A stretch of DNA of 38,881 bases from a virus. Position 1 is the first letter of the stretch. Every line of letters starts with the position of its first letter. The stretch lies in the IMG/VR virus record IMGVR_UViG_3300045988_103004, positions 1 to 38,881 of that record. The stretch is one strand, 5' to 3'. Below are positions 1-32,694 of the stretch, piece after piece. The position numbers and the translations under genes were made by a program. The notes beneath the pieces are model-generated. The model had not been told where the DNA came from, searched no databases, and was given only the letters and a program-made list of their open reading frames with translations.

Positions 1-99
1 AACAGAATAAGGCTTTAATAACAAAAGCTAAATCACGCGAAATCAATGAATGTTTATCTAGAATACCTGGATGGGAATCAACCAAAGGTCCAAAAAAGT
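1..99. repeat. Terminal direct repeat identical to 38783..38881; circular permutation or assembly overlap of a circular genome
   Basis: The first 99 nt ('aacagaataaggctttaataacaaaagc...ccaaaaaagt') recur exactly as the last 99 nt of the window; an open reading frame runs continuously across the junction. Confidence 0.9.
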
Positions 100-119
100 A
101 TGGTCCTTATGGATTACAA

Positions 120-415
120 AGAGGTTACATTCGAAAGGTTACAAATTAGCATTAAGGTTACATTATTAACTTAATAAAAGTTACAAAAAAAATAATGTAA
201 CCTAAAATGTAACCCTGAATGTTACCCTTAAAAATTAAAGCCTTATAACCTTTAGGTTATAGATACGAAAAAATCAATTAAAAAAATGGCAAAGGTTACA
301 AAGTTACATTTATTTCTAAGCTTCATGTGAATTTAGACAAAAACAATAGTGGCTAATATGCCTAAAACGCCTAATTACATATATGCGTTAGAAAAAATAA
401 AAAGAATGTAACCTT
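120..415. repeat. AT-rich iteron array with about 10 direct or inverted copies of GGTTACA/TGTAACC; candidate replication origin
   Basis: GGTTACA at 123, 137, 156, 294 and (GTTACA) at 180 and 303; TGTAACC at 196, 208 and 407; TGTTACC at 220; near-palindrome TAACCtttAGGTTA at 245..258. The block lies immediately downstream of the primase-helicase gene end (147..149 in wrapped coordinates) and upstream of the first replication-module gene. Confidence 0.55.
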
Positions 416-434
416 AAAACTAGAAAGGATAAAA

Positions 435-734
435 ATGCTTGAAAACTCGGTAGAAGAAAAACTTAAAAAAGAGGTTAAAAAGATAGGTGGAAAAGCATTC
501 AAGTTTGAAAGTAGCGGAAACGATGGAGTGCCTGATAGGATTGTTATTTTACCAGGAGGAAGAATTTATTTTGTTGAGTTAAAAAGACCAAAAGGAGGAA
601 GGTTTAGAAAATTACAAAAATGGCAAATGGAACAATTAGAACAGTTAGGCTGCAATGTAAAAAAAATCAAATCATACGAAGAAGTAGAAAAGTTTATTAA
701 AGAAGTTCAGGAGGTAAAAAAGGATGAAGTATAA
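435..734 (+). CDS. VRR-NUC domain nuclease
   Basis: 99 aa; 'GVPDRIVILPGGRIYFVELKRPKGG...KLQKWQ' matches the VRR-NUC (PD-(D/E)XK) signature; sits in the typical phage position before an SNF2 helicase; RBS aaaggat. Confidence 0.7.
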   Translation: MLENSVEEKLKKEVKKIGGKAFKFESSGNDGVPDRIVILPGGRIYFVELKRPKGGRFRKLQKWQMEQLEQLGCNVKKIKSYEEVEKFIKEVQEVKKDEV

Positions 735-2103
735 CCCACATGACTATCAAGAGTTTACGACACAGAAAATGATTGATACTCCACACTTCATGGCTTTACT
801 TGATATGGGACTAGGAAAGACAGTCATAACTTTAACAGCCTTGAATGAAATGATGTTTAATTCATTTGAGATAAACAAAGTATTGGTTATAGCACCATTG
901 AGAGTTGCTGAAATGACATGGAGCGAAGAGATAGAAAAGTGGGATCATCTAAAAAATATTGTAGTCTCAAAAATTATAGGACCTGAAAAACAAAGGATTG
1001 AAGCATTGTATAAGCATGCGGATATATTTTGTATCAATAGAGAAAATACTCAATGGTTAATTGACTATTCAATAAAAAAGAAAAAATGGATATTCGATTG
1101 TATCGTCATTGATGAATCAAGCAGCTTTAAAAATAGTCAATCAAAAAGATTTAAAGCTTTAAGAAAAGTTACTGCAATAGTTCCTAGAATAATTCTATTA
1201 ACTGGAACGCCAGCACCTAATAGCTTGATGGACTTATGGTCGCAAATGTATTTAATAGATGCAGGACAACGATTAGGAAGAACTATCACAGCTTATAGAC
1301 AAGAGTTCTTTACACCAGGAAGACGAAATCGAAATGTTGTATTTGAATATGTTCCAAGACCAGAAGCGGAACAAAAAATCTATGGAAGGATTAAGGATGT
1401 AGCTGTTAGTTTAAAAGCAACAGATTATATCAAGATGCCTGAAAGAATAGATAATTATATTAAACTTCAAATGCCAAAAAGAGTTGAGGCTTTATATCAA
1501 GAAATGGAAAAAGAATATATCTTAACTCTCAATGAAGAAGATATTACAGCAGCATCAGCAGCAGTTGTATGCGGTAAGTTACTTCAAATGGCTAATGGTG
1601 CTGTTTATACAAACGAAAAAAATGTTATAGCCATTCATGATTTAAAACTAGATGCTTTACAAGAAATATTAGATGACAATCCTGGAAAGCCTATTATGGT
1701 TTTTTATAACTTCCAACATGACTTAGATAGATTGCTAGAAAGATTTAAAGAAGAAAATCCAAGAAGACTTTTATCAACAGAAGATAAAAAGGATTGGGAC
1801 AATCACCAAATAAGATTACTTTTGGCTCATCCAGCTTCAATGGGACATGGATTAAACCTACAAGCTGGAGGAAATATTATAGTTTGGTTTGGACTAACTA
1901 ATAGTCTTGAATTGTATCAGCAAGCAAATGCAAGACTTTATAGACAAGGTCAAAAAGAAACAGTGATTATCAATCATTTAATTGTTAAAGATACTGAAGA
2001 TGAAAATGTTATAAAACGACTTCAGTCAAAAAGATTAAATCAAGATGAATTAATAGAAGCTGTAAAAGCAAAGATCAGAAAATACAAGGAGGAAACATTA
2101 TGA
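724..2103 (+). CDS. SNF2/DEAD-box family helicase (phage type)
   Basis: 459 aa; Walker A 'LDMGLGKT', DExx-like 'VIDESSSF', helicase C motif 'HPASMGHGLNLQ...QANARLYRQGQ'; start overlaps the VRR-NUC gene. Confidence 0.85.
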   Translation: MKYNPHDYQEFTTQKMIDTPHFMALLDMGLGKTVITLTALNEMMFNSFEINKVLVIAPLRVAEMTWSEEIEKWDHLKNIVVSKIIGPEKQRIEALYKHADIFCINRENTQWLIDYSIKKKKWIFDCIVIDESSSFKNSQSKRFKALRKVTAIVPRIILLTGTPAPNSLMDLWSQMYLIDAGQRLGRTITAYRQEFFTPGRRNRNVVFEYVPRPEAEQKIYGRIKDVAVSLKATDYIKMPERIDNYIKLQMPKRVEALYQEMEKEYILTLNEEDITAASAAVVCGKLLQMANGAVYTNEKNVIAIHDLKLDALQEILDDNPGKPIMVFYNFQHDLDRLLERFKEENPRRLLSTEDKKDWDNHQIRLLLAHPASMGHGLNLQAGGNIIVWFGLTNSLELYQQANARLYRQGQKETVIINHLIVKDTEDENVIKRLQSKRLNQDELIEAVKAKIRKYKEETL

Positions 2104-2330
2104 TCGATATTTTAAAAATTCAATTACAAGAAGCAAAAGAAGAAAGAGCTAAAAAGGTAAGACCTTATGACTTAAGAATTAAAAAATTAAGTGCAGCAAT
2201 TAAAAGCTTAGAAGAATTTAATTCTATTAGTGATGAGATTAATGATGCTGATAAGGATGAAGTAGCTAGTATTCCTACAGTGGAAGAAGCAGTAGAAATT
2301 GAAGAAAAACATCAGTCAGAAAAATTTTAG
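2100..2330 (+). CDS. hypothetical protein (76 aa, acidic C-terminus)
   Basis: ORF coupled by an ATGA overlap to the helicase gene; no recognisable domain. Confidence 0.45.
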   Translation: MIDILKIQLQEAKEERAKKVRPYDLRIKKLSAAIKSLEEFNSISDEINDADKDEVASIPTVEEAVEIEEKHQSEKF

Positions 2331-2450
2331 ATCGTTTTAAATTTAGAAATAAATTAGATACAATACACACGAACTCGGAATAGTCGAACATCCTAAGTGA
2401 GCCAGGACTAGTAGCTGTTTCGGGTTCGTATTTGTTTTAGGGGGTTTAAA

Positions 2451-2762
2451 ATGCCAACACCAGATAAAATACTAAAGTTCTATCACTCGACAGCTTGGAA
2501 GCGAGTACGTAATTTAAAAAAACAATTAGCAAGAGGAGTATGTGAACATTGCGGTGAGGCAGGATATGAAGTACATCATAAAATACCTTTAACATTAAGC
2601 AATGTAGATGATCCTAAAATTAGTTTAAGCTTGGATAATCTAGAGCTTTTATGTACTAGCTGTCATGATGCAGTTAGAGCAAATGAAAAAGAAGTAAGGA
2701 ACGATGTTACATTTGATGAGAATGGCAACTTAATTCCTAAAGAATTAAAAAGAAAAAGGTAA
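2451..2762 (+). CDS. HNH endonuclease (packaging-associated type)
   Basis: 103 aa; 'CEHCG...YEVHHKIPL...LCTSCHD' HNH zinc-finger motif; strong RBS 'gggggt' upstream. Confidence 0.8.
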   Translation: MPTPDKILKFYHSTAWKRVRNLKKQLARGVCEHCGEAGYEVHHKIPLTLSNVDDPKISLSLDNLELLCTSCHDAVRANEKEVRNDVTFDENGNLIPKELKRKR

Positions 2763-2915
2763 ATTATAAAGGGCACCCCCGGGTCTAAAATTCAAAAATT
2801 GAAAGCGAAGACAACGGCAGTGGACTTCAGAAAAATATATACCCGATTTTTGAAAATCGATGATAAACCTAGAAAATTAATTGAAAAAATGACAAAAAGG
2901 AGGAAATAAAAGTTA

Positions 2916-3650
2916 ATGCAAGTTATTAAAATGAAAATCACGGATTTAAAGCCGTATGAGAAAAATGCAAAGCTTCATCCCGATAAACAAATTAATCAGA
3001 TTGCTGAATCAATTAAAAAATTTGGGATGAATGATCCTATAGGTATATGGGGAAAACAAAATCTAATAGTGGAAGGACATGGACGATATTTAGCATGTTT
3101 GAAATTAGGAATAGAAGAAGTGGACTGTATAAGATTAGATCATTTAACCGATATAGAAAGAAAAGAATATACGTTAATTCATAATAAGACCACTATGAAT
3201 TCGGACTTTGATTTAGAAATACTAGCGGAAGAATTGAAAGACATAGCTAATGATGTAACCATCGATATGTCAGAGTTTGATTTTGAAATTCCGGCATTAG
3301 CAGATAAATTAAGCGAAGATAATTATACACCGGAACTTCCTAAAGTTCCTAAGGCAAAAAGAGGAGATATTTATAAATTAGGTAGACATCGATTGATGTG
3401 TGGTGATGCCACTGAAGAAGATGATGTGGAAAAATTAGTCGATTTAGGAAAAGTCGATATTGTAATAACTGACCCTCCATATAATGTAAATTACGAAGGC
3501 ACAGCAGGACAAATAATGAATGATAACATGGAGTCAAACAGCTTCATTAGTTTTTTAAGTAAAGCGTTTAGTTTGATGAACTTGTTTCTTAAGCCGGGGG
3601 GGGGGCATTCTATGTTTGGCATGCAAGTAGTGAGGTTTATAGCTTTGTAA
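2916..3650 (+). CDS. ParB-like nuclease domain fused to the N-terminal half of a DNA amino-methyltransferase (motif IV DPPY); terminates prematurely after the G10 tract
   Basis: ParB N-terminal domain ('KPYEKNAKLHPDKQINQIAESIKKFGMNDPI...EGHGRYLA'); 'IVITDPPYNVNYEG' motif IV of beta-class N6A/N4C methyltransferases; frame 0 reads 'LKPGGGHSMF...IAL*' through the poly-G. Confidence 0.75.
   Translation: MQVIKMKITDLKPYEKNAKLHPDKQINQIAESIKKFGMNDPIGIWGKQNLIVEGHGRYLACLKLGIEEVDCIRLDHLTDIERKEYTLIHNKTTMNSDFDLEILAEELKDIANDVTIDMSEFDFEIPALADKLSEDNYTPELPKVPKAKRGDIYKLGRHRLMCGDATEEDDVEKLVDLGKVDIVITDPPYNVNYEGTAGQIMNDNMESNSFISFLSKAFSLMNLFLKPGGGHSMFGMQVVRFIAL
3596..3605. repeat. G10 homopolymeric tract inside the methyltransferase gene; frameshift or phase-variation point
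   Basis: ccGGGGGGGGGGcat. The upstream frame (0) and downstream frame (2) would fuse with 11 or 8 G; with 10 G the gene is split. Confidence 0.85.
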
Positions 3651-3739
3651 CTGCACTCTTAAATGCAGGGCTCAAAACAAAGCAAGAGATTATCTGGAAG
3701 AAAAATGCCTTTGCATTAGGTAGGCAAGATTACCAATGG

Positions 3740-4171
3740 ATGCATGAACCTTGTTTATATGGATGGAAAGAAGGAGCAAGCCATTATTTTATCGATGATC
3801 GTAGCTATGCAACGGTAGTTGATGAAAAAGAAATTGATATAAATAAAATGAAACTTCCAGAGTTACGAAGATTGGTAAGAGATTTAATGGCACCTAAAGT
3901 CCCAGTTAGTGTGATAGAAGAGGATAAGCCATTACGAAGTATAGAGCATCCCACAATGAAGCCTATAAGACTTATAGGTAGACTGCTAAATAATTCTAGT
4001 AGACAAAATGAAACCGTCTTAGATTTGTTTGGCGGTTCAGGATCTACTCTTATTGCAGCTGAACAGCTAAATAGAAAGTGTTTGATAATGGAACTAGATC
4101 CAAAATACGTTGATGTGATTATTGATAGATACGAAAAACTAACAGGGATAAAAGCAGAAAAAATAAATTAA
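3740..4171 (+). CDS. C-terminal half of the DNA methyltransferase (motif I FGGSGST); the frame is open from 3593 without an ATG and is the continuation of 2916..3650
   Basis: Frame 2 from 3602 reads 'GAFYVWHASSEVYSFVTALLNAGLKTKQEIIWKKNAFALGRQDYQWMHEPCLYGWK...' (conserved amino-methyltransferase core), then 'LDLFGGSGSTLIAAEQLNRKCLIMELDPKY' (SAM-binding motif I). Confidence 0.75.
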   Translation: MHEPCLYGWKEGASHYFIDDRSYATVVDEKEIDINKMKLPELRRLVRDLMAPKVPVSVIEEDKPLRSIEHPTMKPIRLIGRLLNNSSRQNETVLDLFGGSGSTLIAAEQLNRKCLIMELDPKYVDVIIDRYEKLTGIKAEKIN

Positions 4172-4188
4172 ACAAAGGAGACTCATAA

Positions 4189-5268
4189 ATGAATTTATTT
4201 AGTACAGAGCAAGTAAGTAAATATCATCCAGACAAAGTGGCTGATCAAATAAGTGATGCTATTTTAACTGAATGTTTAAAACAAGACCCTACTTCACATG
4301 TTGCAGTAGAATGCCTTATCAAATCGAATCTAGTCGTTTTAGCTGGTGAGGTGAAAACTAAAGCTAATATTAATTATAAAGATGTTGCTTCTAAGGTTTT
4401 AAGAAAATTACATTATTTAGATGAGTATGAATATCGATTTGAGATTAATATATCGGAACAAAGCCCTGAAATAGATGGAGCAGTTATCAATCAAGAAGAA
4501 GTTGATGAATTGGGTGCAGGTGATCAAGGCATTATGATTGGCTATGCTGATAGAACAACTCAAAGTAAACTACCATGGCCATTTGAACTAGCTAATAAAA
4601 TTATTAATTTGATAGAAACAGATGTTGAAAAGCCTAACTCTATTCTTAAGGGTGATGCAAAAACTCAAGTTACAGCTGATATGGATAATAGCGAACAAAA
4701 AGCAAAATTAATAATAGTTAGTGTTTGTCATAAAAGTGCAGTGGCATTTGATGATGTAAAAAAGTACATAAAAAAGATTATTGATGATAATAGCATTCAA
4801 TATGAAAGTTTAATTGTTAATCCAGGTGGTCCTTGGACAATAGGGGGACCTACTGCTGATTGTGGATTAACAGGAAGAAAGATAGTATGTGACTCTTACG
4901 GGGGGTTTATACCAGTTGGTGGCGGTGCTTTTTCTGGAAAGGATCCTACAAAAGTCGATCGTTCTGCATCCTATATGGTTAGACATATAGCATTAAGAAC
5001 GCTCGAAAAATTCCCACAATATAAAACTTGTGAAATAAGGCTAGCTTATGGAATAGGAATACCACAACCAGTATCAGTTGCTATTAATGTAACACCTCAA
5101 TTTGCAGATATGATAGAGGAAAATAGAGTGAAGCGTTTTGTACTTGCACATTTTGATTTAACACCTAAGGGGATTATAGAAACATTAAATTTGCTAAATG
5201 TAGATTATGAAAAATTAGCGGAAGGATGCCATTACAGATATGACTGGACGAAAACCAATGCCTGCTAG
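4189..5268 (+). CDS. metK: S-adenosylmethionine synthetase (methionine adenosyltransferase), phage-encoded
   Basis: 359 aa; 'KYHPDKVADQISDAILTECL...DP...AVEC', 'GAGDQGIMIGYA' (MetK signature 1), 'DAKTQVT', 'GGGAFSGKDPTKVDRSASY' (MetK signature 2); strong RBS aaaggag. Confidence 0.85.
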   Translation: MNLFSTEQVSKYHPDKVADQISDAILTECLKQDPTSHVAVECLIKSNLVVLAGEVKTKANINYKDVASKVLRKLHYLDEYEYRFEINISEQSPEIDGAVINQEEVDELGAGDQGIMIGYADRTTQSKLPWPFELANKIINLIETDVEKPNSILKGDAKTQVTADMDNSEQKAKLIIVSVCHKSAVAFDDVKKYIKKIIDDNSIQYESLIVNPGGPWTIGGPTADCGLTGRKIVCDSYGGFIPVGGGAFSGKDPTKVDRSASYMVRHIALRTLEKFPQYKTCEIRLAYGIGIPQPVSVAINVTPQFADMIEENRVKRFVLAHFDLTPKGIIETLNLLNVDYEKLAEGCHYRYDWTKTNAC

Positions 5269-5737
5269 ATTAATAGATCCAGCAGAACATAAAAAATCAA
5301 AAGAGCAAATTGATGCAAGACAAGAAATTGAAGCTGGTCTACAAACTACTTCAACTCTTAAATGCCCAGGCTTTCTAAGTCCAGAAGCAAAGAAAGAATG
5401 GCGAAGAATAATGAAACTATATAAACAAATGGATAATGGCATATTATGCGATTTGGATAAAATGGCATTAGTCGCATATTGTGAAGCTGTTTCTATGTAT
5501 AATAAAGCACAAGAAACATGGGCTAAATATAATCAAATAGTTGCTGCGAATCCAGATGCACAAAGAGTACTTGATAAAGCAAGACTTGTCATGAAAGAAC
5601 AAACAAAAATAATGGTTAGTTTGTCAGAACAATTATGCCTTACTCCAGTAGGCCGTGCAAGAATGGGAATGGGAATAGGTAAAAAAGAGCCTAGTGCAAT
5701 AGATAAGTTCTTATCTGAGGATGAGGACGATGTATGA
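5240..5737 (+). CDS. terminase small subunit (P27-family-like)
   Basis: 165 aa; positioned immediately upstream of and overlapping the large terminase; basic N-terminus 'MTGRKPMPARLIDPAEHKKSKEQ' is typical of P27-type TerS. Confidence 0.65.
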   Translation: MTGRKPMPARLIDPAEHKKSKEQIDARQEIEAGLQTTSTLKCPGFLSPEAKKEWRRIMKLYKQMDNGILCDLDKMALVAYCEAVSMYNKAQETWAKYNQIVAANPDAQRVLDKARLVMKEQTKIMVSLSEQLCLTPVGRARMGMGIGKKEPSAIDKFLSEDEDDV

Positions 5738-7407
5738 ATTATGTAAAGCTTTATATTGAGAAACTAAAAAGTGGCGAGATTATAACAAGTCAAAAAGTTA
5801 AAAAATGGTATTTTAATCACATAGAGCCCATTATAAATGACCAAGATCCAAATTATTATTTTAATGAAAAACGCGGTGAAAAATTTATCCGCTTTGCTGA
5901 AACGTTTTGTAAACAGTCAAAAGATAGATGGGCAGGCAAACCATTATCATTATGCTTGTTTCAGAAGGCAAAATGGCAATGCATATTTGGAATTTTGAAG
6001 CGAGAAACCAATCGTAGAAAATTCCGTGAAGTACTTGATGTAAGAGGTAGAAAAAACGGGAAGTCAACTGAGCATGCAGCTGTTGCTAACTATTTAACAC
6101 TTACAGAAAAAGGCGGTGAGCTTTATAGTGCAGCGACAGTTGCTGATCAAGCTAGAAGAATCTGGGAAGAAAGCCAAAGTATGATAGATCAATCAAAAGA
6201 CCTCCAATCAGTTTTAGATTATAAAGTATTCCCTAGGCCTACTATTTATAAGAAAAGAACGGCTTTTAAATCAACATATAAAGTACTTTCAAAAAACGTT
6301 AGAACATTTGATGGACTTAATGCTTCTGGTGCTATTATTGATGAAATTCATGAATTGCCAAGATCCATTTATGATATTTTAAAACAATCAATGTCAGCAC
6401 GTAGTGAGCCATTACTAAGTATGATTACTACTGCTGGCTTCGTTCGTGCGGGATTGTTTGATGACGAATATGAATACGCATCAAAAGTTATAGATGGCTT
6501 AATACAGGATGAAACATTATTTCCGCTAATTTATGAATTAGATAGTCCAGATGAAATAGAAGATGAATCGTGTTGGATAAAAGCAAATCCAGCTATTGAT
6601 ATAATCAAAGATAGAGATGAACTAAGACGTAATGTTATAAGAATGAAAGGTGATCCTAATTTTGCAAATACAGTAAAAACAAAAGATTTTAATATGATAG
6701 GAATTCAAGGAAAGACATGGTTAACCTTTGAAGATTTAAATGTAACTGATGAATATAGCGAACAAGAATTGGAAAAATTTAATAACACTATAGTGCTTGG
6801 TGGTTTTGACTTGTCGCGTACTAATGACTTAACAGCATTCACAACTTTATTGTTTGATAAAGAGAATCATAGACCTATTGCAATTACGATGTACTGGATA
6901 ACTGCTAAATTTTTAGAGCAGCAAGAGCAAAATAATTCAAAAGTACCATGGAGGCAATGGGTGGATAGAGGCCTAATAAGAATTAGTGGTAATGAGCTAA
7001 TAGATTACCATGATATAGCAAATTATGTAGCAGCTAATTTTAAGCAAAGAGGATGGATGTATCAATTTATTAATTATGATAGCTACTCAGCTGTTTATTT
7101 AGTTCAAGAATTAGCACAAATGGGATACGCCGAAGATTACTGCTTAAAATCAACACCACAAGGTGCAAAGACCCTTAGCATACCAATGCAAACATTAGAA
7201 GCTCACTTGAAATCAAAGCTCATTTGTTATCAAAATAATCCAGTAACTAAGTGGATGTTATCCAATGTAGAGTTAGAACTTGATCGTAATGGAAACTATA
7301 TGCCTAAGAAAGCAGGCAATAAACGTGAAAGAAAAATAGATGGACCAGCAACTATTTTAGACTGTTATGTGAGCTTGTGCGAGAATGTAGATTACTACCT
7401 AAATTAA
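5734..7407 (+). CDS. terminase large subunit
   Basis: 557 aa; Walker A-like 'DVRGRKNGKSTE'; size and position (TerS-TerL-portal) fit. Confidence 0.85.
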   Translation: MNYVKLYIEKLKSGEIITSQKVKKWYFNHIEPIINDQDPNYYFNEKRGEKFIRFAETFCKQSKDRWAGKPLSLCLFQKAKWQCIFGILKRETNRRKFREVLDVRGRKNGKSTEHAAVANYLTLTEKGGELYSAATVADQARRIWEESQSMIDQSKDLQSVLDYKVFPRPTIYKKRTAFKSTYKVLSKNVRTFDGLNASGAIIDEIHELPRSIYDILKQSMSARSEPLLSMITTAGFVRAGLFDDEYEYASKVIDGLIQDETLFPLIYELDSPDEIEDESCWIKANPAIDIIKDRDELRRNVIRMKGDPNFANTVKTKDFNMIGIQGKTWLTFEDLNVTDEYSEQELEKFNNTIVLGGFDLSRTNDLTAFTTLLFDKENHRPIAITMYWITAKFLEQQEQNNSKVPWRQWVDRGLIRISGNELIDYHDIANYVAANFKQRGWMYQFINYDSYSAVYLVQELAQMGYAEDYCLKSTPQGAKTLSIPMQTLEAHLKSKLICYQNNPVTKWMLSNVELELDRNGNYMPKKAGNKRERKIDGPATILDCYVSLCENVDYYLN

Positions 7408-7425
7408 AGAAAGGAGCTAGATAGC

Positions 7426-8667
7426 GTGGGACTTTTAGCAAAAATACAAAAAGTACTATTTAAAAACGATAAAGGGCTAAAAGAGCCTAAAGGAACGTCA
7501 AATATACTAGATTTGTTTATACCTTCTTTTTCTGGATTAGCTGATCCGGCATTTAATACAACATTTATGGCAGCAGTAAATGCACACGCTAAGCATGTAA
7601 GCAAAATACAGCCTAAGGTATATCTAAAAGAAGAGCCTACTAAAAACAAAATGTATTTGGATAGGATATTATGCCTTAGACCTAACCCTGTTATGAGTGC
7701 ACCATTGATGTGGAAGATCGTAGCAACTTCATACTTTAGAGATAATTTATCTGTATTGTATTTGGAGTGGGACCTTGTCAATTTTAAAGAGCCATTAAAA
7801 GCTATATGGCCTTTAGACCTAGACAAGAATAGTGTTGAGTTTAGAGAAATAGATGGAAGAATCTATTTAAAATTTAGACTCGAAGGTGAAATAAAATATG
7901 CTTCGATGGAAGATTTGATAATTTTGACGCGTGAAGCTGATCCATCATCATTATTAGGATCTAGAAGTCCAGCTATAGCTGAGACTTTAAAGGCAATTAA
8001 AACATCCTATGAAGGAATGCAACAAGCTATTCAAACTAGTGCATTTATTAGATTTATTATTAATTCTACAACACCTTTAACTGATGAAATTAAAGCTCAA
8101 AAAGCAAAAAAGTTTGCCGAAGATTACCTGACAATGGGGAAATCCTATGGTGTAATTTATACAGATAGTGCTTCGCAAGTGACAAAAGTGGAAAGCTCAG
8201 GAAAGTGGGCTAGCTCTGATGAAATTAAAGATCTTAAAAATGACATATATGAATATCAGGGAATAACTGAAGAAATTATTAAAGGTAAATATACAGAAAA
8301 CGAATGGCAAAGCTATTATGAATCAACACTCGAACCATTCCTAATAGAGTTGCAAACAGAGCTAACTTTTAAACTTTTTACAAAAGAGGAAATATGTAAA
8401 GGCAATAACATTAGAGTAATATCAAATAGGCTTCAAAATGCTTCGCTTGAAACAAGATTAAAAATTGCAACAGCTTATATGAGATTGCCAGTTTATAAAC
8501 CAAATGTTATTACTAATTTACTTTATTTACCAGACTTAGAAAATGGCGATAAAGAATATGCAACACTTAATTTTGTAAATGCCGATAAGCAAGATGATTA
8601 CCAAGGAGTTGATAAAACTTCTAATGACAAGGAGGATGAAGAAGATGGCACAAATGAAACAAGCTAG
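7426..8667 (+). CDS. portal protein (HK97-like family)
   Basis: 413 aa; follows TerL; acidic C-terminus; typical length and synteny. Confidence 0.75.
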   Translation: MGLLAKIQKVLFKNDKGLKEPKGTSNILDLFIPSFSGLADPAFNTTFMAAVNAHAKHVSKIQPKVYLKEEPTKNKMYLDRILCLRPNPVMSAPLMWKIVATSYFRDNLSVLYLEWDLVNFKEPLKAIWPLDLDKNSVEFREIDGRIYLKFRLEGEIKYASMEDLIILTREADPSSLLGSRSPAIAETLKAIKTSYEGMQQAIQTSAFIRFIINSTTPLTDEIKAQKAKKFAEDYLTMGKSYGVIYTDSASQVTKVESSGKWASSDEIKDLKNDIYEYQGITEEIIKGKYTENEWQSYYESTLEPFLIELQTELTFKLFTKEEICKGNNIRVISNRLQNASLETRLKIATAYMRLPVYKPNVITNLLYLPDLENGDKEYATLNFVNADKQDDYQGVDKTSNDKEDEEDGTNETS

Positions 8668-11679: not shown

Positions 11680-12258
11680 ATGCTAAGAAAAATTAGAGTA
11701 TTCCCAATCACTGGTTATGATAGTACTGGTTATCCGCAATATGGGTCACCATTGCCATTAGTAACAGTAGATGAAGGCGAAACCGAAGTTAATAATATTA
11801 GATTTAAATTAACACCTACAACTACTACTAAAACATTAAGTGCTGATGATAGGGAAGAAACACATACTGCAATTGTAGGTTTTACATTTGAATTAGAAGC
11901 GTATGGAATTGACGGAAAAGCACTTGCGGCAATTACAGAAGCTACATTAGATGCAAATGGAAATATTAATCATACGGTTAACACAGGAACAGAAAAGTAT
12001 GTGGGTATTTTCATTGAAGGTAAAAATGAAAAAGGTAAAAAATTCCAAAAATGGTTTTATAAATGCAAATTTGATCCAATTGATGAAGAGGCTAAAACAC
12101 AATCATCAACTGCAGAATCAATGACATTATCGGGCTCAGGTGTGGTCATTACTGCAGGTGGAAAAGATAGAACACATGCTACAGTTTATGAAGGCAACAC
12201 AGGATATATTAGTGGTGAGCCAACTGCAGCAGGAATATATAAGGAACCAACTGAATAA
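11680..12258 (+). CDS. major tail protein
   Basis: 192 aa; position immediately upstream of the chaperone and tape-measure genes; RBS aggagga. Confidence 0.65.
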   Translation: MLRKIRVFPITGYDSTGYPQYGSPLPLVTVDEGETEVNNIRFKLTPTTTTKTLSADDREETHTAIVGFTFELEAYGIDGKALAAITEATLDANGNINHTVNTGTEKYVGIFIEGKNEKGKKFQKWFYKCKFDPIDEEAKTQSSTAESMTLSGSGVVITAGGKDRTHATVYEGNTGYISGEPTAAGIYKEPTE

Positions 12259-12626
12259 TGCGTACAGCAACGTATAAAGGACGTATTTTAGGCAATAGCA
12301 TAAATGCTTATAATTTTTACAAACAAGCCACAGGGCGCGGATTACAAGCGGATATGGCGATTTTAGGTGAAAGTTCTAAAAAGTTATCTAGCATTGACCC
12401 TAATAAAATGACTCCAGAAGAATTAGTAGAGGCAAGTAAACAAGTTGATACAGCTTCAATAGTTATGGGACTTTATGTAGCTTTAAGAAAAAGTGGAGAT
12501 CCTGAAGTACGTAGAAAAACGCCTGAGCAAATATTAGATGAACTAGAAATGGATAATTTATCAGATCCAAAATTATTAAATGTAATGGTGGAATTAATAT
12601 CACCAAAAAAAGAGCTAGCGGAGTAG
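12258..12626 (+). CDS. tail assembly chaperone (G-like)
   Basis: 122 aa; ends just after an A7 slippery run; lies between the major tail and tape-measure genes. Confidence 0.6.
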   Translation: MRTATYKGRILGNSINAYNFYKQATGRGLQADMAILGESSKKLSSIDPNKMTPEELVEASKQVDTASIVMGLYVALRKSGDPEVRRKTPEQILDELEMDNLSDPKLLNVMVELISPKKELAE

Positions 12627-12814
12627 TAAATCCGAAGAGGGTTGATATTGACCTTCAGATTGCATATTGCTTCGCAGTTTTATCAATACCGAACTTTTAT
12701 TTAGATGTATGGGACATTGATGATTTAAGCAACTTTATAGATCTCTATAATTCGGATGCTAATTCAACCAAGTCAGAAAAAATATATACAGAAGATAACC
12801 TAGATCAGTTTTAG
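12605..12814 (+). other. Programmed -1 ribosomal frameshift site (A AAA AAA at 12605..12611) and the resulting -1 frame extension (GT-like chaperone C-terminus) ending at stop 12812..12814
   Basis: The zero frame reads 'cca aaa aaa gag'; the -1 frame is open for about 67 further codons ('RASGVVNPKRVDIDLQIAYCFAVLSIPNFYLDVWDIDDLSNFIDLYNSDANSTKSEKIYTEDNLDQF*') with no start codon. This is the classic G/GT arrangement. Confidence 0.6.
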
Positions 12815-12825
12815 GAGGTAAACAA

Positions 12826-13221
12826 ATGAATGTGTTATTAAAATATTTAGAAACTCTAAGAACTGATTTAGGACCTACTGTTAAAAATGCGATTAAAGAT
12901 GTAATAGATGAAGAAAGCAATGAATGTTTTACCACAATAAAACAAGGTACGCCTGTTTCATTAAAAGAACATCTACATTTAGTCGATACAATTAAAATTA
13001 CAAAGATTTCTAATCCAAACAAATATGGCTGGAAAATAGACTACGAAGGTTATAACGAAAAGGGTATTCCGTATAGTTTAATAGCTCGTAGTTTAAATAA
13101 AGGCTCAGCATTTGGTGAAGCAACTCATCATATAGACGTTGCTGTTCATAATTTAAAGGGTTTGGATGAAAGAATAGATAAACATGTTGAAGAAGAATTA
13201 AAAAAGTTAGGAGGTAATTAG
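12826..13221 (+). CDS. hypothetical protein between chaperone and tape-measure genes
   Basis: 131 aa; RBS aggagg; no recognisable domain. Confidence 0.4.
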   Translation: MNVLLKYLETLRTDLGPTVKNAIKDVIDEESNECFTTIKQGTPVSLKEHLHLVDTIKITKISNPNKYGWKIDYEGYNEKGIPYSLIARSLNKGSAFGEATHHIDVAVHNLKGLDERIDKHVEEELKKLGGN

Positions 13222-14664
13222 ATGGCAACAGAAGTATCAAGATCGCTAAGCGAAATTAACGCTGAATTAAGTAAAATCGATGAATCGTTAGGTAAGTGCA
13301 AGGATCAAACTTCATTGTTATCTAAAGCTCTACAAATTAATCCAAATAGTTTAGTGCTAATAAATGCTAAATATCAAGCACTAGGTAGACAAGTCGAAGA
13401 AGCAACAAAAAAGGTTAAACTTTTAAGAGAACAACAAAAACTAATGGTCAGCGAGGGTGTGGATAAAGAATCAAAAGAATTTAAAGATTTAACTACACAA
13501 ATCAAAAAAGCTGAATCACAAGTGAGATCACTAAAGGGACAATTGGAAAAAGTAGACTCTCAAAAGTTTAATAACTTAAAATCAGGTTTAAATGGAATAT
13601 CGCGTGCTTGCTCTATGATATTAGCTTCAGTTGTAGCAATAGGAGTTGCTTTTGCGGCATCAGGTGATGAAATAGCTAAAGCTTCAGAAAAATATAGTAT
13701 CAGTGCTGCTACTTATCAGTATTGGAAAAATATATTTTCAAAAACTACTGGCAATGATAATGGCTATATGACAACGCTAGCTAGTGTTACTAATTTATTA
13801 GGACAAGTGGCTAAAGGATCATCAAAAGCAGCAACAGCATTAGCTACGGTAGGATTAAGCTTAGAAGATATAAATGGATTAAGTTCTCAAGAGGCAATGT
13901 TAAAAATTATTAATGCCTTAAAAAACATTGAAGATGAAGAAACGAGAATAGCTGTAGCAACTGCTTTACTTGGAAATACTGGAACTGAAATTGCAATGGT
14001 TGCAGGACTTACGACCGATGAAATAGCTTCTTTAAATGAAGAAATGGATAACGCAGGATTAATTACTGACGAACAAGCACAAGCAGCAGCTAAACTTAAT
14101 GATGCTTATGATAATTTAAAAAATGAATTTAAGGCAGTGATAGTAGAACTAGGAACATCACTTATCCCTATGTTTCAAACGATTATTAATCTTGCTTCAG
14201 CGTTTACACCTTTGATTTCAGGAATTGCGAAAATTATGCAAGCAATAGGACCAGCCGGACAAGTTCTTATAATAGTTATATTAGGATTATTAGTAGTTAT
14301 TCCAAAATTAATAATAGGTGTGTATTCTTTAAACACAGCATTAACGGCTTTAGGTGCTAATCCTATTAGTGCAAAATTTTTATTGATTGCAGCGGCTGTT
14401 GCGGCAGTGACATTAGGTGTTACTGCATTAGCTGGTGCTATAACTAATTTAGATAATACTAGTGCAACAATTGATACAACATTAGCTGAATCAACACTTC
14501 AGCATACTGCTTCAGCAACAAGCGGAAATAGTGAAGGAACAAGCGGTAATACATACGTTACTTACAATGACTATGGAACTCAAAATGTTACGATAGATCA
14601 AGATATAGATATTGATGAAGTTATAGATGCGCTTCATTCTAAAAAAATTCAAGTGGGAGGATAA
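13222..14664 (+). CDS. tail tape measure protein (short, 480 aa)
   Basis: Coiled-coil N-terminus, internal hydrophobic/TM stretches ('IIVILGLLVVIPKLIIGVYSL', 'LLIAAAVAAVTLGVTALAGA'), position after the chaperones. Confidence 0.75.
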   Translation: MATEVSRSLSEINAELSKIDESLGKCKDQTSLLSKALQINPNSLVLINAKYQALGRQVEEATKKVKLLREQQKLMVSEGVDKESKEFKDLTTQIKKAESQVRSLKGQLEKVDSQKFNNLKSGLNGISRACSMILASVVAIGVAFAASGDEIAKASEKYSISAATYQYWKNIFSKTTGNDNGYMTTLASVTNLLGQVAKGSSKAATALATVGLSLEDINGLSSQEAMLKIINALKNIEDEETRIAVATALLGNTGTEIAMVAGLTTDEIASLNEEMDNAGLITDEQAQAAAKLNDAYDNLKNEFKAVIVELGTSLIPMFQTIINLASAFTPLISGIAKIMQAIGPAGQVLIIVILGLLVVIPKLIIGVYSLNTALTALGANPISAKFLLIAAAVAAVTLGVTALAGAITNLDNTSATIDTTLAESTLQHTASATSGNSEGTSGNTYVTYNDYGTQNVTIDQDIDIDEVIDALHSKKIQVGG

Positions 14665-20239: not shown

Positions 20240-21967
20240 ATGGAAAATGAATTAAGATTAAGACTCCATAATAATGGTAAATGGACTGAAATAATCGAAC
20301 AACCTGGCTTAGGAAATTCTTTTGAAAACAAAGCTACGACACTTGTTATAGAATTACCACAAAGCACCTATGGCTTTATGCACTTTTTAGAATTTTTAAA
20401 ACCATCAGGAAGTACTATTTCAACAGGCGCTATTGAAGAAAAAATAGATGATAGCGGAATCCATTATGTGGAATTTAAAGTAGTTAGCGGACTTATTGAT
20501 GAAAGAGGACGCTATCAAATGCAATATGTAGGTAGAAAAGGAAGTCAAACAATTACAGTTGTAAAGAGCGAGTTGAAAGCTTTAGATGTTTTTAAAAGTA
20601 TTAATTCAGGATTAGAAATTTCTATAAGTAATCCAGATTTTATTACATGGGCAACAGAAGAAATAAATAAAATGAGTAGTAGTATTTCCGAAGGCGATAA
20701 ATCAACACTTGAAGAAGCCAAGGCTTATGCTGATAAAAAGATTGCTGAAAAGCACTTAACTATTTATGGCGTTAGTGGCATAGGCGATGAAAACCCAGAA
20801 TTAACAAGAACTTATAATGCCGCAGGAATTAAACTTATTAAAACCAAAATAAATGGTAATATCGAAGTTACTGCTAACGATCCAGCGTTTCAAGAATTTT
20901 TTAACTTTAAAGAATCAACTGATGAACTAGGTAATGTGTTTGTGAACATTCCTCCTATGTCTTTTAAAATTGATAGAATTGAAAATAACGAAGTAAAAGC
21001 TATTTCTGTAAAATTATACGAAACAGGCGATGAAAATTTAGGTTTTGAGGTTCATCCGTTCTTTAGACACTATATTAACGAAACCGAGTGGGATGGTGTT
21101 ACTTCAAGACAAGTAGCTAAATACTTACTTTATTACCAAACAGAAGCTGATGGTGGCGATGGAAAAGTTCATTCTAAGTCTAATAAAAAATATGCAAGCA
21201 ATACATATTTAAATTGGGATAAAGGTAGACAAGCAATTAAAGATACTAAGGAAAGTTATGCGGTGATAAATTGGCATTTCATTTCATTCTTTAGATGGAT
21301 AACCTTGATTTATTTAGCTAGAGTAGATGTTTATAAATTTTTTGAAAAAGAAGATGTAGATGGTAAAGGCGATGAAGGAAATCCTATAGCACAACTATAT
21401 AATGCATGGAATTCAGAAACAGGACTAACAGATAGTATTGTTTCGCATACTGGTATGAATATAGAAAATACATCTATAAAATTATTCAATATTGATGATG
21501 CTTTACATGGCGTTTCATGCGGAGGTATTTATGTAAATAGTGAAGGAAAATATGGCTATTCAAATATCGCAGATTTTGATATTAACAAAGATACAGGAGC
21601 GGTAGAAGCACAGCAAGGAATTTTACAATCCATGTCTGTGGACAATGTAGAAGCTGACAATATAACTAAAATGGGTATTGTTGATGAAAACGAATATCTG
21701 CAAATGCCAGCAGCATTAAGGCTTGCAACATCAGATCTAACTTATGATTGTTCAAAAGCTTATCATAATTACTATTGTTCAAAAGCAAAATTTTGTGGTA
21801 ATCCAGCTGAAAGCGATAATCCTATTGGAAGAGCTCAAATTATATTCTTTGGTTGGACTGATGGACCATGTATAGATAATGGCCTCTTCTATTCTTACTG
21901 TTACTCTGGGGTCTACGACGCGTGGGCCGACCGCTACGGCTGCCGCCTTTGCAAACTCCCTTTATAG
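20240..21967 (+). CDS. DGR target protein (putative receptor-binding tail protein; the C-terminal about 25 aa are encoded by the variable repeat)
   Basis: 575 aa; the 3' end (21883..21952) is homologous to the downstream template repeat with mismatches only at template adenines; C-terminus '...FYSYCYSGVYDAWADRYGCRLCKLPL'. Confidence 0.8.
   Translation: MENELRLRLHNNGKWTEIIEQPGLGNSFENKATTLVIELPQSTYGFMHFLEFLKPSGSTISTGAIEEKIDDSGIHYVEFKVVSGLIDERGRYQMQYVGRKGSQTITVVKSELKALDVFKSINSGLEISISNPDFITWATEEINKMSSSISEGDKSTLEEAKAYADKKIAEKHLTIYGVSGIGDENPELTRTYNAAGIKLIKTKINGNIEVTANDPAFQEFFNFKESTDELGNVFVNIPPMSFKIDRIENNEVKAISVKLYETGDENLGFEVHPFFRHYINETEWDGVTSRQVAKYLLYYQTEADGGDGKVHSKSNKKYASNTYLNWDKGRQAIKDTKESYAVINWHFISFFRWITLIYLARVDVYKFFEKEDVDGKGDEGNPIAQLYNAWNSETGLTDSIVSHTGMNIENTSIKLFNIDDALHGVSCGGIYVNSEGKYGYSNIADFDINKDTGAVEAQQGILQSMSVDNVEADNITKMGIVDENEYLQMPAALRLATSDLTYDCSKAYHNYYCSKAKFCGNPAESDNPIGRAQIIFFGWTDGPCIDNGLFYSYCYSGVYDAWADRYGCRLCKLPL
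21883..21952 (+). repeat. DGR variable repeat (VR)
   Basis: cctcttctattctTactgtTacTCtGgggtcTacGacgcgtggGCcGacCGctacggctgccgcCttTgc; upper-case bases differ from the TR, and every difference lies opposite a TR adenine. Confidence 0.85.
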
Positions 21968-21977
21968 AGGGGTTGGT

Positions 21978-21995
21978 AAGGGGATACTTCCCCTT
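21978..21995. other. GC-rich hairpin (7-bp stem AAGGGGA/TCCCCTT, 4-nt loop TACT) 26 bp downstream of the VR; DGR cruciform/hairpin element
   Basis: Perfect stem-loop immediately 3' of the VR/IMH region, analogous to the hairpin required for efficient homing in characterised DGRs. Confidence 0.55.
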
Positions 21996-22085
21996 ATAAA
22001 ATAAACTTGCGAAGCAAGATAAGTATGATAAAATTTTAAGAAAGGGATTGTATTACCTTTGGCGTAGTTAGTGGCTAGTTTAGTT

Positions 22086-22158
22086 CCTCTTCTATTCTAA
22101 CTGTAACAATAGGGTCAACAACGCGTGGAACAACAACAACTACGGCTGCCGCATTAGC
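22086..22158 (+). repeat. DGR template repeat (TR)
   Basis: cctcttctattctaactgtaacaatagggtcaacaacgcgtggaacaacaacaactacggctgccgcattagc; rich in AAC codons when read in the VR frame; lies between the target gene and the RT. Confidence 0.85.
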
Positions 22159-22284
22159 TAAATAAATAAAATCTTTGTAATACAATTCCTGCTCCCTTGA
22201 GCAAAAGAAAATTCGATAAAGGGGCGGATTAGTAGCGTATAGATAATCGTCGAAAATCCGTTAGAGTTAGCAAAGGATTAAATT

Positions 22285-23295
22285 ATGAAAACATTAAAGA
22301 ACATCTACTCGAACCTTTACCAGCATGACACAATTAGAGATGTACTTACTGAATGTCTAAAAGACAAAAAGTATAGAAAAGAAATGCTGGGACGCTTAGA
22401 AGGTGACATTACTTATGTGCAATCATGCATGGGCACTTTTACCTTTAATAAAAAAGAAACTCATCAAGTGATAATTAGAGATCGTAAAAAAGAAAGAACG
22501 ATAACTATAAGCCCGTACTTTCCTAATAAGATATTTGATTATTTAGTTATTGCTCCATTAAAACCTATGATAAAGAAATCTATGTATAGGTGGAATGTGG
22601 GAAATGTAGAAGGTAGAGGAAAAGACATGGGAATACAGTTTCTTTATTCTCATATAAAAGGTTATAAGTATGCAATCAAACTAGACGTAAAGAAATTCTA
22701 TGACAACATAGACAAAAAGATTTTATTTAAATTGATTAAAAGAAAGGTATCAGATAGCGACTTTTTAAGAATGTATGAAGAAGTTATAGGAACAACTGGT
22801 AAAGGTCTTGATTTAGGCCTAAATTCAAGCCAGTGGCTAGCGAATTACTATTTGCAAGGCCTTGATTACTTCATAAAGCAAGAACTTAAAGCTGAAGTAT
22901 ATGTTCGCTATGTTGATGATATGATTATTCTGGGAAATAATAAAAGGAAATTGCATTATTTCATAAGAGCTATTAATCAATATTTAAAAGAAAAATTAAA
23001 TTTAAAATTAAAAGAAAATTATGCGTTGTTGAATTTAGAAAAAGGTGAAAGTGTGGAATTTGTGGGATACAAAATATCACATAAAGGAATACAACTTATA
23101 AAGCCTTTATTCCATAAGTTTATAAGACTCTACAAAAGAATGAAAGACATGTCAAAAAGACGTGCTAAAACGCTTGTTGCGCTTTGGGGATGGTTCAAAG
23201 CTACAACAGGTTCATACGCTTATTATATAAATCATTTAAGAGATACAATAATGTTCTCTGAAGTTAAAAGGTTATTAAGGAGGACCACAACATGA
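22285..23295 (+). CDS. DGR reverse transcriptase
   Basis: 336 aa; 'LDVKKFYDNID' (RT motif 2), 'LGLNSSQWLANYYLQGLD' (DGR-specific [IL]GxxxSQ motif that replaces QGxxxSP), 'YVRYVDDMIILG' (YxDD catalytic motif). Confidence 0.9.
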   Translation: MKTLKNIYSNLYQHDTIRDVLTECLKDKKYRKEMLGRLEGDITYVQSCMGTFTFNKKETHQVIIRDRKKERTITISPYFPNKIFDYLVIAPLKPMIKKSMYRWNVGNVEGRGKDMGIQFLYSHIKGYKYAIKLDVKKFYDNIDKKILFKLIKRKVSDSDFLRMYEEVIGTTGKGLDLGLNSSQWLANYYLQGLDYFIKQELKAEVYVRYVDDMIILGNNKRKLHYFIRAINQYLKEKLNLKLKENYALLNLEKGESVEFVGYKISHKGIQLIKPLFHKFIRLYKRMKDMSKRRAKTLVALWGWFKATTGSYAYYINHLRDTIMFSEVKRLLRRTTT

Positions 23296-25026: not shown

Positions 25027-25543
25027 AAGATTTTATGCATTAATTGCTACACACAAAGATCTAGGTGACCTAGAATCAAAAGCTCTTCAATGTGACAAGC
25101 ATGCCGTTGGCTTAACTAAATCAGGAAAGCTCTATAAATACAATTCACGTATTAAAGAGGCTACCGAGATTAGCGAAGAAGAAGCAGCTAACATACTTGA
25201 ATGCTCTATTGAAGATGTTAAGAAAATTAAAGAGAGTAAAGCTCGTTTTGTTTTTTCTGAACCAGTGGATGAGGTAAAAATTGTCCACCCAGTTATAGAA
25301 GAAACATTAGGCGAAGAAGAAACTCAAAATCCAGTAATTGAAAAAGAAGATGCTGAAGATGAAGAAGATGACGAAGTAGAAGATGAAGATCCTACTTCTG
25401 ATATTGATGATTTAATCGAATCAGTTGAAGATGCTTCAGCAGATGTCCAAGATGCCTTAGATAAAAACGCCGATAAAATTACAAATTTATTAACAAGAAT
25501 TGCAAATGCACTAGAAGATATTAATAAAAAACTTTTAGACTAA
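25018..25543 (+). CDS. hypothetical protein with a highly acidic C-terminal region (the ORF is open from 24911; the likely start is 25018 after aaaggag)
   Basis: 'MVKRFYALIATHKDLGDLESKALQCDKH...EDAEDEEDDEVEDEDPTSDIDDLIE'. Confidence 0.4.
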
Positions 25544-27216: not shown

Positions 27217-27611
27217 TATTTACCACTTCCAAAATCTTGTTGAGCTTCTAAAAATTTTAAGTGATTATAAGCAATTTCAACATTAGCTGCCGTTAAGTTT
27301 AAAACCATTTTCATGCAAGCTAATCGTAAGTGCTTATCTTTATCACAGCTATTTGATTTCTCATATTCATTGAACATCGTCAATAATTTTTCTTCAAATG
27401 TATCTAATAAGTCAGCCTCAGTGTGATAAAGTAAAAAATCTATATCAACATGAAAATAATCGGCTAATTTTGATGCGTAGGTAACATTTAATTTACGTCT
27501 TCCGTTTTCTATTGCACTGATAATGGAAAAGTCAATTCCTACATCTTCAGCGAGCTCTCTAACAGTTAAACCACGGGATACACGTAAATTTTTTAATCTG
27601 TCATTTTTCAT
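27216..27611 (-). CDS. CI-like repressor, XRE-family HTH
   Basis: 131 aa; 'LRVSRGLTVRELAEDVGIDFSIISAIENGRRKLNVTYASKLADYF'; divergent from the early operon; stop overlaps the integrase start. Confidence 0.8.
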   Translation of the reverse strand: MKNDRLKNLRVSRGLTVRELAEDVGIDFSIISAIENGRRKLNVTYASKLADYFHVDIDFLLYHTEADLLDTFEEKLLTMFNEYEKSNSCDKDKHLRLACMKMVLNLTAANVEIAYNHLKFLEAQQDFGSGK

Positions 27612-32250: not shown

Positions 32251-32694
32251 ATGGAAGAAATAAAAACACCGCTAATGGCGGATTTAAAAAGTCCTGATTT
32301 ATTAACTAAGGAACAATTAGAAGAATTATTACCCGAATTAGATGGAATTATTAGCTGGGCAAAGCAAGTCCAAGACTTCGCACTTAATCAAGCAATTAAA
32401 GGCGAAAAATTTAAAGGCTTTAAAGTAGTAGAAGGTCGTTCACTTAGAAAGTGGAAAGATGAAGAAAAGGTAGCTGATATTCTCGAAGCTGAAGGTTATG
32501 ATGCTTCATTAATTTATGAGAAGAAGCTAAAAGGAATCAGTGCTGTTGAATCTTTAATGGGTAAAAAAGACTTTGCAAAAGTATTAGGCTCATTAGTTGA
32601 TAAACCAGCAGGCAAGCCAACGCTAGTCCCTGAAAGTGATAAGAGACCAACTTATGATGCCACAGCTCAAGCAGTCGCAGACTTTAAAGATTAA
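32251..32694 (+). CDS. hypothetical replication/recombination-module protein
   Basis: 147 aa; strong RBS aaggagg. Confidence 0.4.
   Translation: MEEIKTPLMADLKSPDLLTKEQLEELLPELDGIISWAKQVQDFALNQAIKGEKFKGFKVVEGRSLRKWKDEEKVADILEAEGYDASLIYEKKLKGISAVESLMGKKDFAKVLGSLVDKPAGKPTLVPESDKRPTYDATAQAVADFKD

Follow-up and report, generated by a model that had tools for sequence, protein, structure and literature searches.

Phage genes for MetK, the S-adenosylmethionine (SAM) synthetase, are already known beside DNA methylase genes and are widespread, and a hypothesis for this pairing is already published. In the Streptococcus pyogenes prophage Phi1207.3, described in 2014, the module comprises VRR-NUC, SNF2 helicase, a MetK of 353 amino acids (aa; orf29), HNH, a ParB-DNA methylase, a C5 methylase, and the small terminase subunit TerS (PMC4260502). 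The orf29 product was proposed to be the methyl-donor source for the phage methylase (PMC4260502). According to another study, from 2024, 58.9% of Ca. Heliusvirales genomes carry K00789, with DNA methyltransferases very common alongside (PMC11283538), and the virome literature lists phage MetK as a common auxiliary metabolic gene (AMG) of cysteine and methionine metabolism (PMC11283538). The subject here is a metK gene in a viral sequence of 38,881 nucleotides (nt), IMG/VR record IMGVR_UViG_3300045988_103004, which was analysed at its full length and is called the window. The new elements are the distance-resolved linkage of metK to methylase genes, a divergent phage MetK clade with the motif SKYHPDK, and a phage methylase that is a candidate for phase variation. 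This methylase is the most promising lead and is more interesting than MetK itself.

The module of the window has the same content as those of Phi1207.3, Phi-m46.1, the phi-Ssu..._rum phages, and the Javan prophages: a VRR-NUC-like protein, SNF2 helicase, HNH, MetK, a ParB-fused methylase, TerS, and the large terminase subunit TerL. The MetK-carrying "rum" phages of Streptococcus suis (phi-Ssu..._rum) also have the same rumA-type integration site as the window phage. In contrast, the window MetK is 42–48% identical to those of the Streptococcus prophages, which belong to a sister compact clade and have S[S/C/V]GHPDK in place of SKYHPDK. The window also differs in having the methylase before metK, in having no C5 methylase, and in its host, an uncultured member of the human-gut Bacillota. 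The Heliusvirales phages NatCom_42228 and Evtepia NatCom_11697 have the order MetK-HNH-x-x-DNA methylase, and Heliusvirales MetKs are 40–41% identical to that of the window.

Cellular MetK (Escherichia coli, PDB 1fug/7ll3; TIGR01034) shares its three-domain fold, signature motifs, and catalytic residues with the phage protein. A difference is that the phage metK has no riboswitch leader. The SAM lyase of phage T3 (gene 0.3 product) destroys SAM and inhibits MetK, and SAM levels matter for type I restriction-modification (R-M) and for bacteriophage exclusion (BREX) (bioRxiv 10.1101/2023.02.27.530186). The likeness to this system is one of analogy only and consists in the manipulation of the host SAM pool by a phage around R-M and BREX; the T3 protein is unrelated, and its chemistry and logic are opposite to those of MetK. 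The window ORF (open reading frame) does not resemble SAM lyase, and its active site for synthesis is intact, so that SAM targeting of the T3 type is not what is found here.

The metK ORF starts with ATG and codes for 359 aa, at the same coordinates, 4189–5268, as in an earlier note made from the letters of this DNA. It has the MetK motif GAGDQGIMIGY at residue 109 and GGGAFSGKD, followed by PTKVDRS, at residue 244, so both signatures named in that note are present. The Pfam domains S-AdoMet_synt_N (PF00438, residues 3–87, E = 3.9e-27), S-AdoMet_synt_M (PF02772, residues 108–214, E = 3.6e-20), and S-AdoMet_synt_C (PF02773, residues 218–350, E = 3.3e-41) follow each other in order, all well above their gathering scores. 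For the NCBIfam metK equivalog TIGR01034, the score is 329.1 bits, with the cutoff at 309.4, over profile positions 1–358 of 377; the margin is slim because the compact clade of this protein is divergent. The ORF also matches 45 distinct solved MetK/MAT sequences in the PDB (best E = 3.8e-71) and phrog_1569 (E = 2.2e-96). No stop or frameshift occurs in any of the eight near-identical copies of the gene, among which six polymorphic codons are synonymous only and four change the amino acid, a comparison that is uninformative about selection. The ORF at 4189–5268 is, as judged from sequence, a complete MetK. The earlier claim of a bona fide full-length SAM synthetase is borne out by all in-silico tests (domains, equivalog cutoff, residues, and predicted fold), and the objection that a profile search might find only a degraded fragment fails, since the three domains and the catalytic residues are kept.

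The E. coli reference sequence used for the alignment is that of PDB 7ll3/1fug, save for one engineered residue. The residues His14, Asp16, Glu42, Glu55, Gln98, Asp118, and Lys165 are conserved, as are Asp238, Arg244, Lys245, Lys265, Lys269, and Asp271. The catalytic and ligand-binding roles of these residues are known from structures of the E. coli enzyme. All 13 are invariant in 19 diverse members of the compact clade. Changes specific to the clade are EG to KY just before the catalytic His, Arg229 to Pro, Phe230 to Trp, which falls at the adenine-stacking position, and TQ to VC in the STQH motif. The phage protein has about 25–35 residues fewer than cellular MetK. Compared with the E. coli enzyme, it is trimmed in the loop after the first beta-alpha-beta unit, has a deletion of six residues before the NP(T/G)G strand, and ends about 13 residues earlier at the C-terminus. 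The earlier note had found the protein slightly short for a bacterial MetK. That worry is resolved by the length range of the entire clade (333–369 aa), and the 359-aa length is best described from the alignment as loop trimming with a shorter C-terminus, not decay.

The AlphaFold2 model of the protein has a predicted local distance difference test score (pLDDT) of 81.8 and a predicted template modelling score (pTM) of 0.83. The top Foldseek matches to this model are all MetK/MAT (E about 1e-33, TM 0.82–0.88), and nothing else ranks near. The parts with low confidence are the gating loop (residues 101–106) and residues 226–247, a region whose counterpart in real MetKs is packed across the interface of the dimer. 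The three-fold pseudo-symmetric alpha/beta fold of MetK is kept in the predicted structure.

Identity of the phage MetK to any of the cellular MetKs compared (E. coli, Acinetobacter, Enterococcus) is 36–40%, and those cellular enzymes are 64–75% identical to one another. Relatives at 53–64% identity fall into at least 120 clusters, all of 333–369 aa, and have the signatures STEQVSK[Y/F]HPDK and AEGCHYR in common. In a distance-based neighbour-joining tree with few cellular references and without the host's own MetK, the topology of which is indicative only, the sister of the window clade is a second compact clade (345–349 aa) with MetKs of Streptococcus Javan and phi-Ssu phages and of Heliusvirales. 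Both compact clades split from the cellular enzymes in this tree. All inspected contexts of the compact clade are phage or prophage. The divergence of the clade, together with these phage and prophage contexts throughout, gives an indication that metK belongs to an old phage-borne lineage and is probably not a recent capture from a host.

Phage MetK is among the commonest AMGs of gut and streptococcal phages. MetK homologues are present in 136 GenBank phage records, 90 of which are Streptococcus prophages, usually with the annotation S-adenosylmethionine synthetase, and at least 595 IMG/VR viral contigs carry a MetK relative. A megablast of positions 2400–5800 of the window against 50,697 phage records gave no match; the window therefore has no close isolate among them.

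A DNA methyltransferase gene lies within three genes of metK in all eight compact-clade contexts, with varying gene order and module. The methylase and then metK stand ahead of terS in the window and in contig L025, the order is TerS-metK-ParB methylase-TerL in L024 and L030, and L032 has ParB methylase-x-metK-x-terminase. In L029, metK stands between a C5 methylase and an N6_N4 methylase within the replication module. In L022 and L031, the order is metK-x-(x)-N6_N4 methylase-radical SAM. A methylase near metK also occurs in Javan20, phi-SC181, Erysipelothrix phi1605, and the two Heliusvirales phages named above. In this one sub-lineage of the compact clade, the radical-SAM genes (L022, 8948–9652; L031, 7955–8647) represent a second SAM consumer in the cluster.

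The linkage was counted at 80 IMG/VR loci with hidden Markov models built from the context methylases, which cover the N6_N4 and C5 families only and thus give an underestimate. The density of methylase ORFs around metK is 1.92 per 10 kb at 0–1.5 kb, 1.57 at 1.5–3 kb, and 1.48 at 3–4.5 kb, and it falls to 0.12–0.13 per 10 kb at 4.5–10 kb, so that methylases are about 12-fold denser within 4.5 kb. A methylase is present within 3 kb of metK at 37 of the 53 loci that have at least 3 kb on both sides. Because the pairing persists through rearrangement of gene order and module, it is good evidence, at the level of gene content, for a functional link between metK and the methylase. The changing position around TerS in the relatives suggests that the pair moves as a cassette.

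In the window, 17 nt separate the methylase stop codon from the start of metK, and the pair stands between the HNH gene and the small terminase gene, as previously stated (Table 1). It had also been described as a moron-like insertion, a description that does not hold. A crude consensus scan of positions 1–8000 found no terminator-like site on the + strand and 28 promoter-like sites against 35.7 ± 6.0 in shuffled sequence. The GC content of the pair (0.33–0.35) is ordinary for the genome (0.30–0.37), the genes are tightly packed, and the pair is kept in every relative, near-identical or diverged. Though accessory, it is integral to the operon that leads into packaging. In Firmicutes, metK is controlled by SAM-riboswitch feedback. 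An Rfam scan of the whole window found no riboswitch and no other RNA family; this and the 17-nt intergenic gap leave no room for such feedback here.

The methyltransferase that had been placed directly upstream of metK does adjoin it, but in the window it consists of two ORFs, frameshifted at a run of ten G residues (G10). The N6_N4_Mtase profile is split over the two ORFs, both of which match the DNA methyltransferase family phrog_498 (6.7e-76 and 1.3e-44). In-silico repair of the run to G8 or G11 gives an intact methylase of 417 or 418 aa, respectively, and G9, G10, and G12 give truncated products. The run is the sole G/C homopolymer of at least 7 nt in the window. Near-identical contigs from other assemblies have tract lengths of G10, G8, G9, G8, G6, G7, and G6 between identical 25-nt flanks, and gene callers report an intact methylase of 417 aa in the two G8 copies (L004 and L006) and in no other. 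The tract is the only indel in alignments of about 15 kb to four of these relatives (98.6–99.3% identity) and in an alignment of 5.9 kb to a fifth, which shows no substitution.

The homologous G run shifts the frame in L025 but not in L046, L049, or L050. A more distant methylase homologue has GGC-GGC at the homologous Gly-Gly site, and the Javan20 and phi-SC181 loci contain no G tract of at least 7 nt. L055, a phage of 33% GC, has G9 in two adjacent methylase genes, one N6_N4 and one C5. The G7–G9 runs in methylase genes near metK are at L055 6173 and 6531, L050 850, L049 4246, L046 9419, and L025 5408. In 1.27 Mb of viral contigs, methylase ORFs account for 11% of the sequence and contain 9 of the 23 G/C runs of at least 7 nt. 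The G runs of L012 were set aside as nothing unusual, since that metagenome-assembled genome (MAG) is GC-rich. The split C5 methylase of L029 was likewise rejected as a further case, the split not being at a homopolymer.

This pattern has the signature of a slipped-strand contingency locus and makes the gene a candidate phase-variable methylase. Differences in tract length could also come from homopolymer errors of short-read sequencing and assembly, or from neutral decay of the methylase in lysogens, an origin that is considered rather doubtful. All tract copies come from short-read metagenome assemblies, L004 and the window may share a study or sample and differ in the assembly pipeline, and two ON copies (G8) in seven assemblies is the figure expected of random tract lengths. 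However, the span of 6–10 nt exceeds an error of ±1, and the three A8 runs, eight A7 runs, and single G6 run of these 15 kb show no change of length, with no control homopolymer of 9 nt or longer in the aligned region. The codons also speak against error or decay. Pro-Gly-Gly is written CCG-GGG-GGG, although GGG accounts for 5.8% of Gly codons and CCG for 5.7% of Pro codons in the genome, a choice with a chance of about 2e-4. In addition, G7–G8 tracts are present at the homologous Gly-Gly codons of the metK-adjacent methylase in four other lineages in which MetK is only 51–64% identical. Length variation of the tract is thus likely to be real; that it serves as an adaptive switch is possible but doubtful. 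The resemblance to bacterial phasevarions (Mod and type I/III genes with simple sequence repeats) lies in an in-frame homopolymer whose length toggles a DNA methyltransferase ON or OFF. Unlike those systems, the candidate switch concerns an orphan N6/N4 methylase with a ParB fusion, which a temperate phage of a gut Firmicute encodes in its lytic operon. No clear phage precedent for a phase-variable methylase was found in a literature search that was not exhaustive.

On balance, the probable role of metK is the supply of SAM for methylation of the phage genome. An active compact MetK, encoded in the same operon as the methylase and free of the Firmicute SAM-riboswitch control, would keep genome methylation before packaging from being limited by SAM supply or by the build-up of S-adenosylhomocysteine. 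The gene would be translated from its own ribosome-binding site, directly after the ParB-fused methylase, within an operon running from replication to packaging genes. The enzyme would convert ATP and methionine to SAM, and this supply would escape host control during lytic growth. The phage methyltransferase could then methylate many newly replicated genomes ahead of packaging, and the progeny would be protected from restriction in the next host. We infer the enzymatic activity, the timing of expression, SAM as the limiting factor, and methylation as the beneficiary. Several points weigh against this role. In about 30% of the adequately flanked viral loci, the search for N6_N4 and C5 methylases detected none within 3 kb of metK, FP_Brigit has no methylase clearly adjoining metK, and many Streptococcus-type loci are kin by descent, so that the linkage counts are not independent. 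A Pfam scan of the phage found no SAM-dependent enzyme besides the methylase, a limitation of SAM during infection is itself deduced, and no experimental study of any phage MetK was found in the literature searched. Furthermore, the methylase is out of frame in the window and in five of seven distinct assemblies (G6, G6, G7, G9, and G10 versus G8 and G8), while metK is intact throughout. The usefulness of metK would be confined to the ON sub-population, unless the gene brings a benefit that does not depend on the methylase. The coupled methylation module proposed in the earlier note therefore stands with regard to its strong distance-dependent gene linkage across many phages, and it is weakened as an always-on system by the out-of-frame partner.

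A general AMG would fit an intact metK beside a methylase that is OFF, the radical-SAM neighbours in some phages, the phages without an adjoining methylase, and the plain listing of MetK as a common AMG in the virome literature (PMC11283538). In such a case, MetK would keep SAM high for any SAM-dependent process, such as polyamines, the methyl cycle, RNA and protein methylation, or radical-SAM chemistry, with no specific tie to DNA methylation. This is unlikely, as the approximately 12-fold local enrichment of methyltransferases and a pairing that lasts through rearrangements are hard to explain without a specific functional link. The proposal that MetK counters defences that deplete or depend on SAM receives no supporting evidence. 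It would have MetK restore SAM depleted by a host defence or a competing element, or tip the balance in type I/III R-M or BREX, and it draws by analogy only on the importance of SAM for type I R-M and BREX in the T3 work (bioRxiv 10.1101/2023.02.27.530186). That precedent runs the opposite way, since the T3 enzyme destroys SAM and inhibits MetK, and extra SAM should aid BREX and type I restriction, which need it. The literature searched contains neither a SAM-depleting defence nor an anti-defence role of a SAM synthetase, and the window and its relatives give no pointer to one, so that this explanation is very improbable. A MetK-like protein without catalysis or with a dominant-negative effect, which would alter the activity of host MetK by assembling with it, or a passenger gene in decay, could be read from the 36–40% identity to cellular MetK, the changes EG to KY next to the catalytic His, F230W, and R229P, and the narrowly cleared equivalog cutoff. 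It is extremely unlikely, because the catalytic and ligand residues are invariant in a clade diverged to about 53% identity, no copy has a stop or frameshift, and the predicted fold is preserved.

Supply of SAM for genome methylation can be combined with the candidate switch in a speculative scheme, that of a phage "phasevarion with its own fuel". The tract, present in several gut-phage lineages, might stochastically toggle the methylation of progeny, and the unregulated MetK might complete methylation when the methylase is ON. If this is true, methylated progeny would be shielded from classical R-M, and unmethylated progeny would be invisible to methyl-dependent restriction. With a real poly-G switch, phages would hedge between restriction systems by the contingency-locus strategy of bacterial pathogens, which would bear on host-range prediction and phage engineering. 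The quantitative linkage and the ancient phage lineage sharpen the methyl-donor hypothesis into one that is testable in tractable Streptococcus prophages.

Table 1. Features of the metK locus in the window (positions are those of the 38,881-nt sequence).
Feature	Position	Strand	Basis
HNH endonuclease gene, packaging-associated type, upstream of methylase	2451..2762	+	Pfam HNH 3.2e-08; phrog_144, phrog_4581
ParB_N-fused N6/N4 DNA methyltransferase gene, out of frame	2916..4171	+	two ORFs 2916-3650, 3740-4171; Pfam ParB_N + N6_N4_Mtase
G10 homopolymer, candidate slipped-strand phase-variation tract	3596..3605	+	Pro-Gly-Gly codons of motif LK-P-G-G-A-F-Y-V-W-H in methylase
AAGGAG ribosome-binding site of metK	4175..4180	+	direct sequence reading; 8 nt before ATG, within 17-nt post-methylase gap
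metK, predicted compact phage-type S-adenosylmethionine synthetase, 359 aa	4189..5268	+	ORF, Pfam, TIGR01034, phrog_1569, residues, AlphaFold2
Small terminase subunit gene (terS)	5240..5737	+	Pfam Terminase_4 5.2e-15; phrog_83; 29-nt overlap with metK 3' end
Large terminase subunit gene	5734..7407	+	Pfam TerL_ATPase + TerL_nuclease

The window has an exact terminal direct repeat of 99 nt (positions 1–99 and 38783–38881). As this repeat is an assembly overlap, the genome is circular or circularly permuted, with a length of about 38.8 kb. The ORF of the VapE primase spans the window ends. A scaffold from a human-gut metagenome (L003) matches the window at 100% identity. It is a predicted temperate siphophage-type genome, with a serine integrase and repressor (25540–27611, − strand), structural and packaging genes (HNH, TerS, TerL, portal, Peptidase_S78 protease, and capsid), and a replication module. 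The latter comprises a DUF2800/PD-(D/E)XK exonuclease, an Enc34-type single-stranded DNA (ssDNA)-binding protein, a family A DNA polymerase, the VapE primase, and an SNF2 helicase. Integrated copies are found at the 3' end of an rumA-type RNA uracil-5-methyltransferase gene in contigs of up to 305 kb. The best match of the flanking host methionyl-tRNA synthetase among named entries is a "Bacilli bacterium" MAG (66%). In the integrated copies (L014, L017, L018, L019, and L021, about 11900–13300), the integrase ORF has 530–545 aa compared with 558 and overlaps the host gene.

By function type only, the window has a counterpart of each of the nine Heliusvirales marker functions: DUF2800/PDDEXK, Enc34 ssDNA-binding protein, DNA_pol_A, VRR-NUC-like (a 99-aa ORF), SNF2 helicase, TerL, portal, Peptidase_S78, and capsid. 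The TerL of the window comes nearest to those of Clostridioides difficile siphophages, at about 39% identity. Its best 25 matches among the 50,697 phage records are from C. difficile, Bacillus, and Staphylococcus phages (36–40%), and none is from Heliusvirales. TerL similarity, used as a proxy for the published criterion (the authors' TerL hidden Markov model, bit score >700), thus argues against Heliusvirales membership despite the nine marker functions, and this affiliation was rejected.

The comparison of phage MetKs also leads to corrections of annotation. PHROG 1569, the phage-MetK family, is labelled "unknown function" in that database and represents MetK. Two Heliusvirales phages have MetK genes that are mislabelled "peptidase", L028 at 3998–5047 (PV036444.1) and L036 at 3998–5044 (PV036427.1). 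The "phage" MetK matches of Helicobacter, Acinetobacter, and probably Enterococcus are not phage genes but host metK, located at the edge of a prophage or on a contig of chromosomal origin, and they served as cellular references instead.

A likely diversity-generating retroelement is located at 20240–23295, with a variable repeat at 21883–21947, a template repeat at 22086–22150, and a reverse transcriptase at 22285–23295 (Pfam RVT_1). One copy of its 65-nt repeat pair is at the 3' end of a 575-aa gene, presumably for a tail fibre or receptor-binding protein. The second copy is 203 nt downstream, and the mismatches in the core repeat are at adenines of this downstream (template) copy. The DUF2800/PD-(D/E)XK exonuclease consists of two consecutive ORFs 14 nt apart, 31487–32236 (profile positions 1–243) and 32251–32694 (244–368). 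The split is common to all relatives and may reflect either a gene that is truly split or a frameshift that has been conserved. ORFs resembling homing endonucleases of the NUMOD4/HNH_3 type (32636–33055 and 35657–36514) flank the genes of the ssDNA-binding protein and the DNA polymerase.

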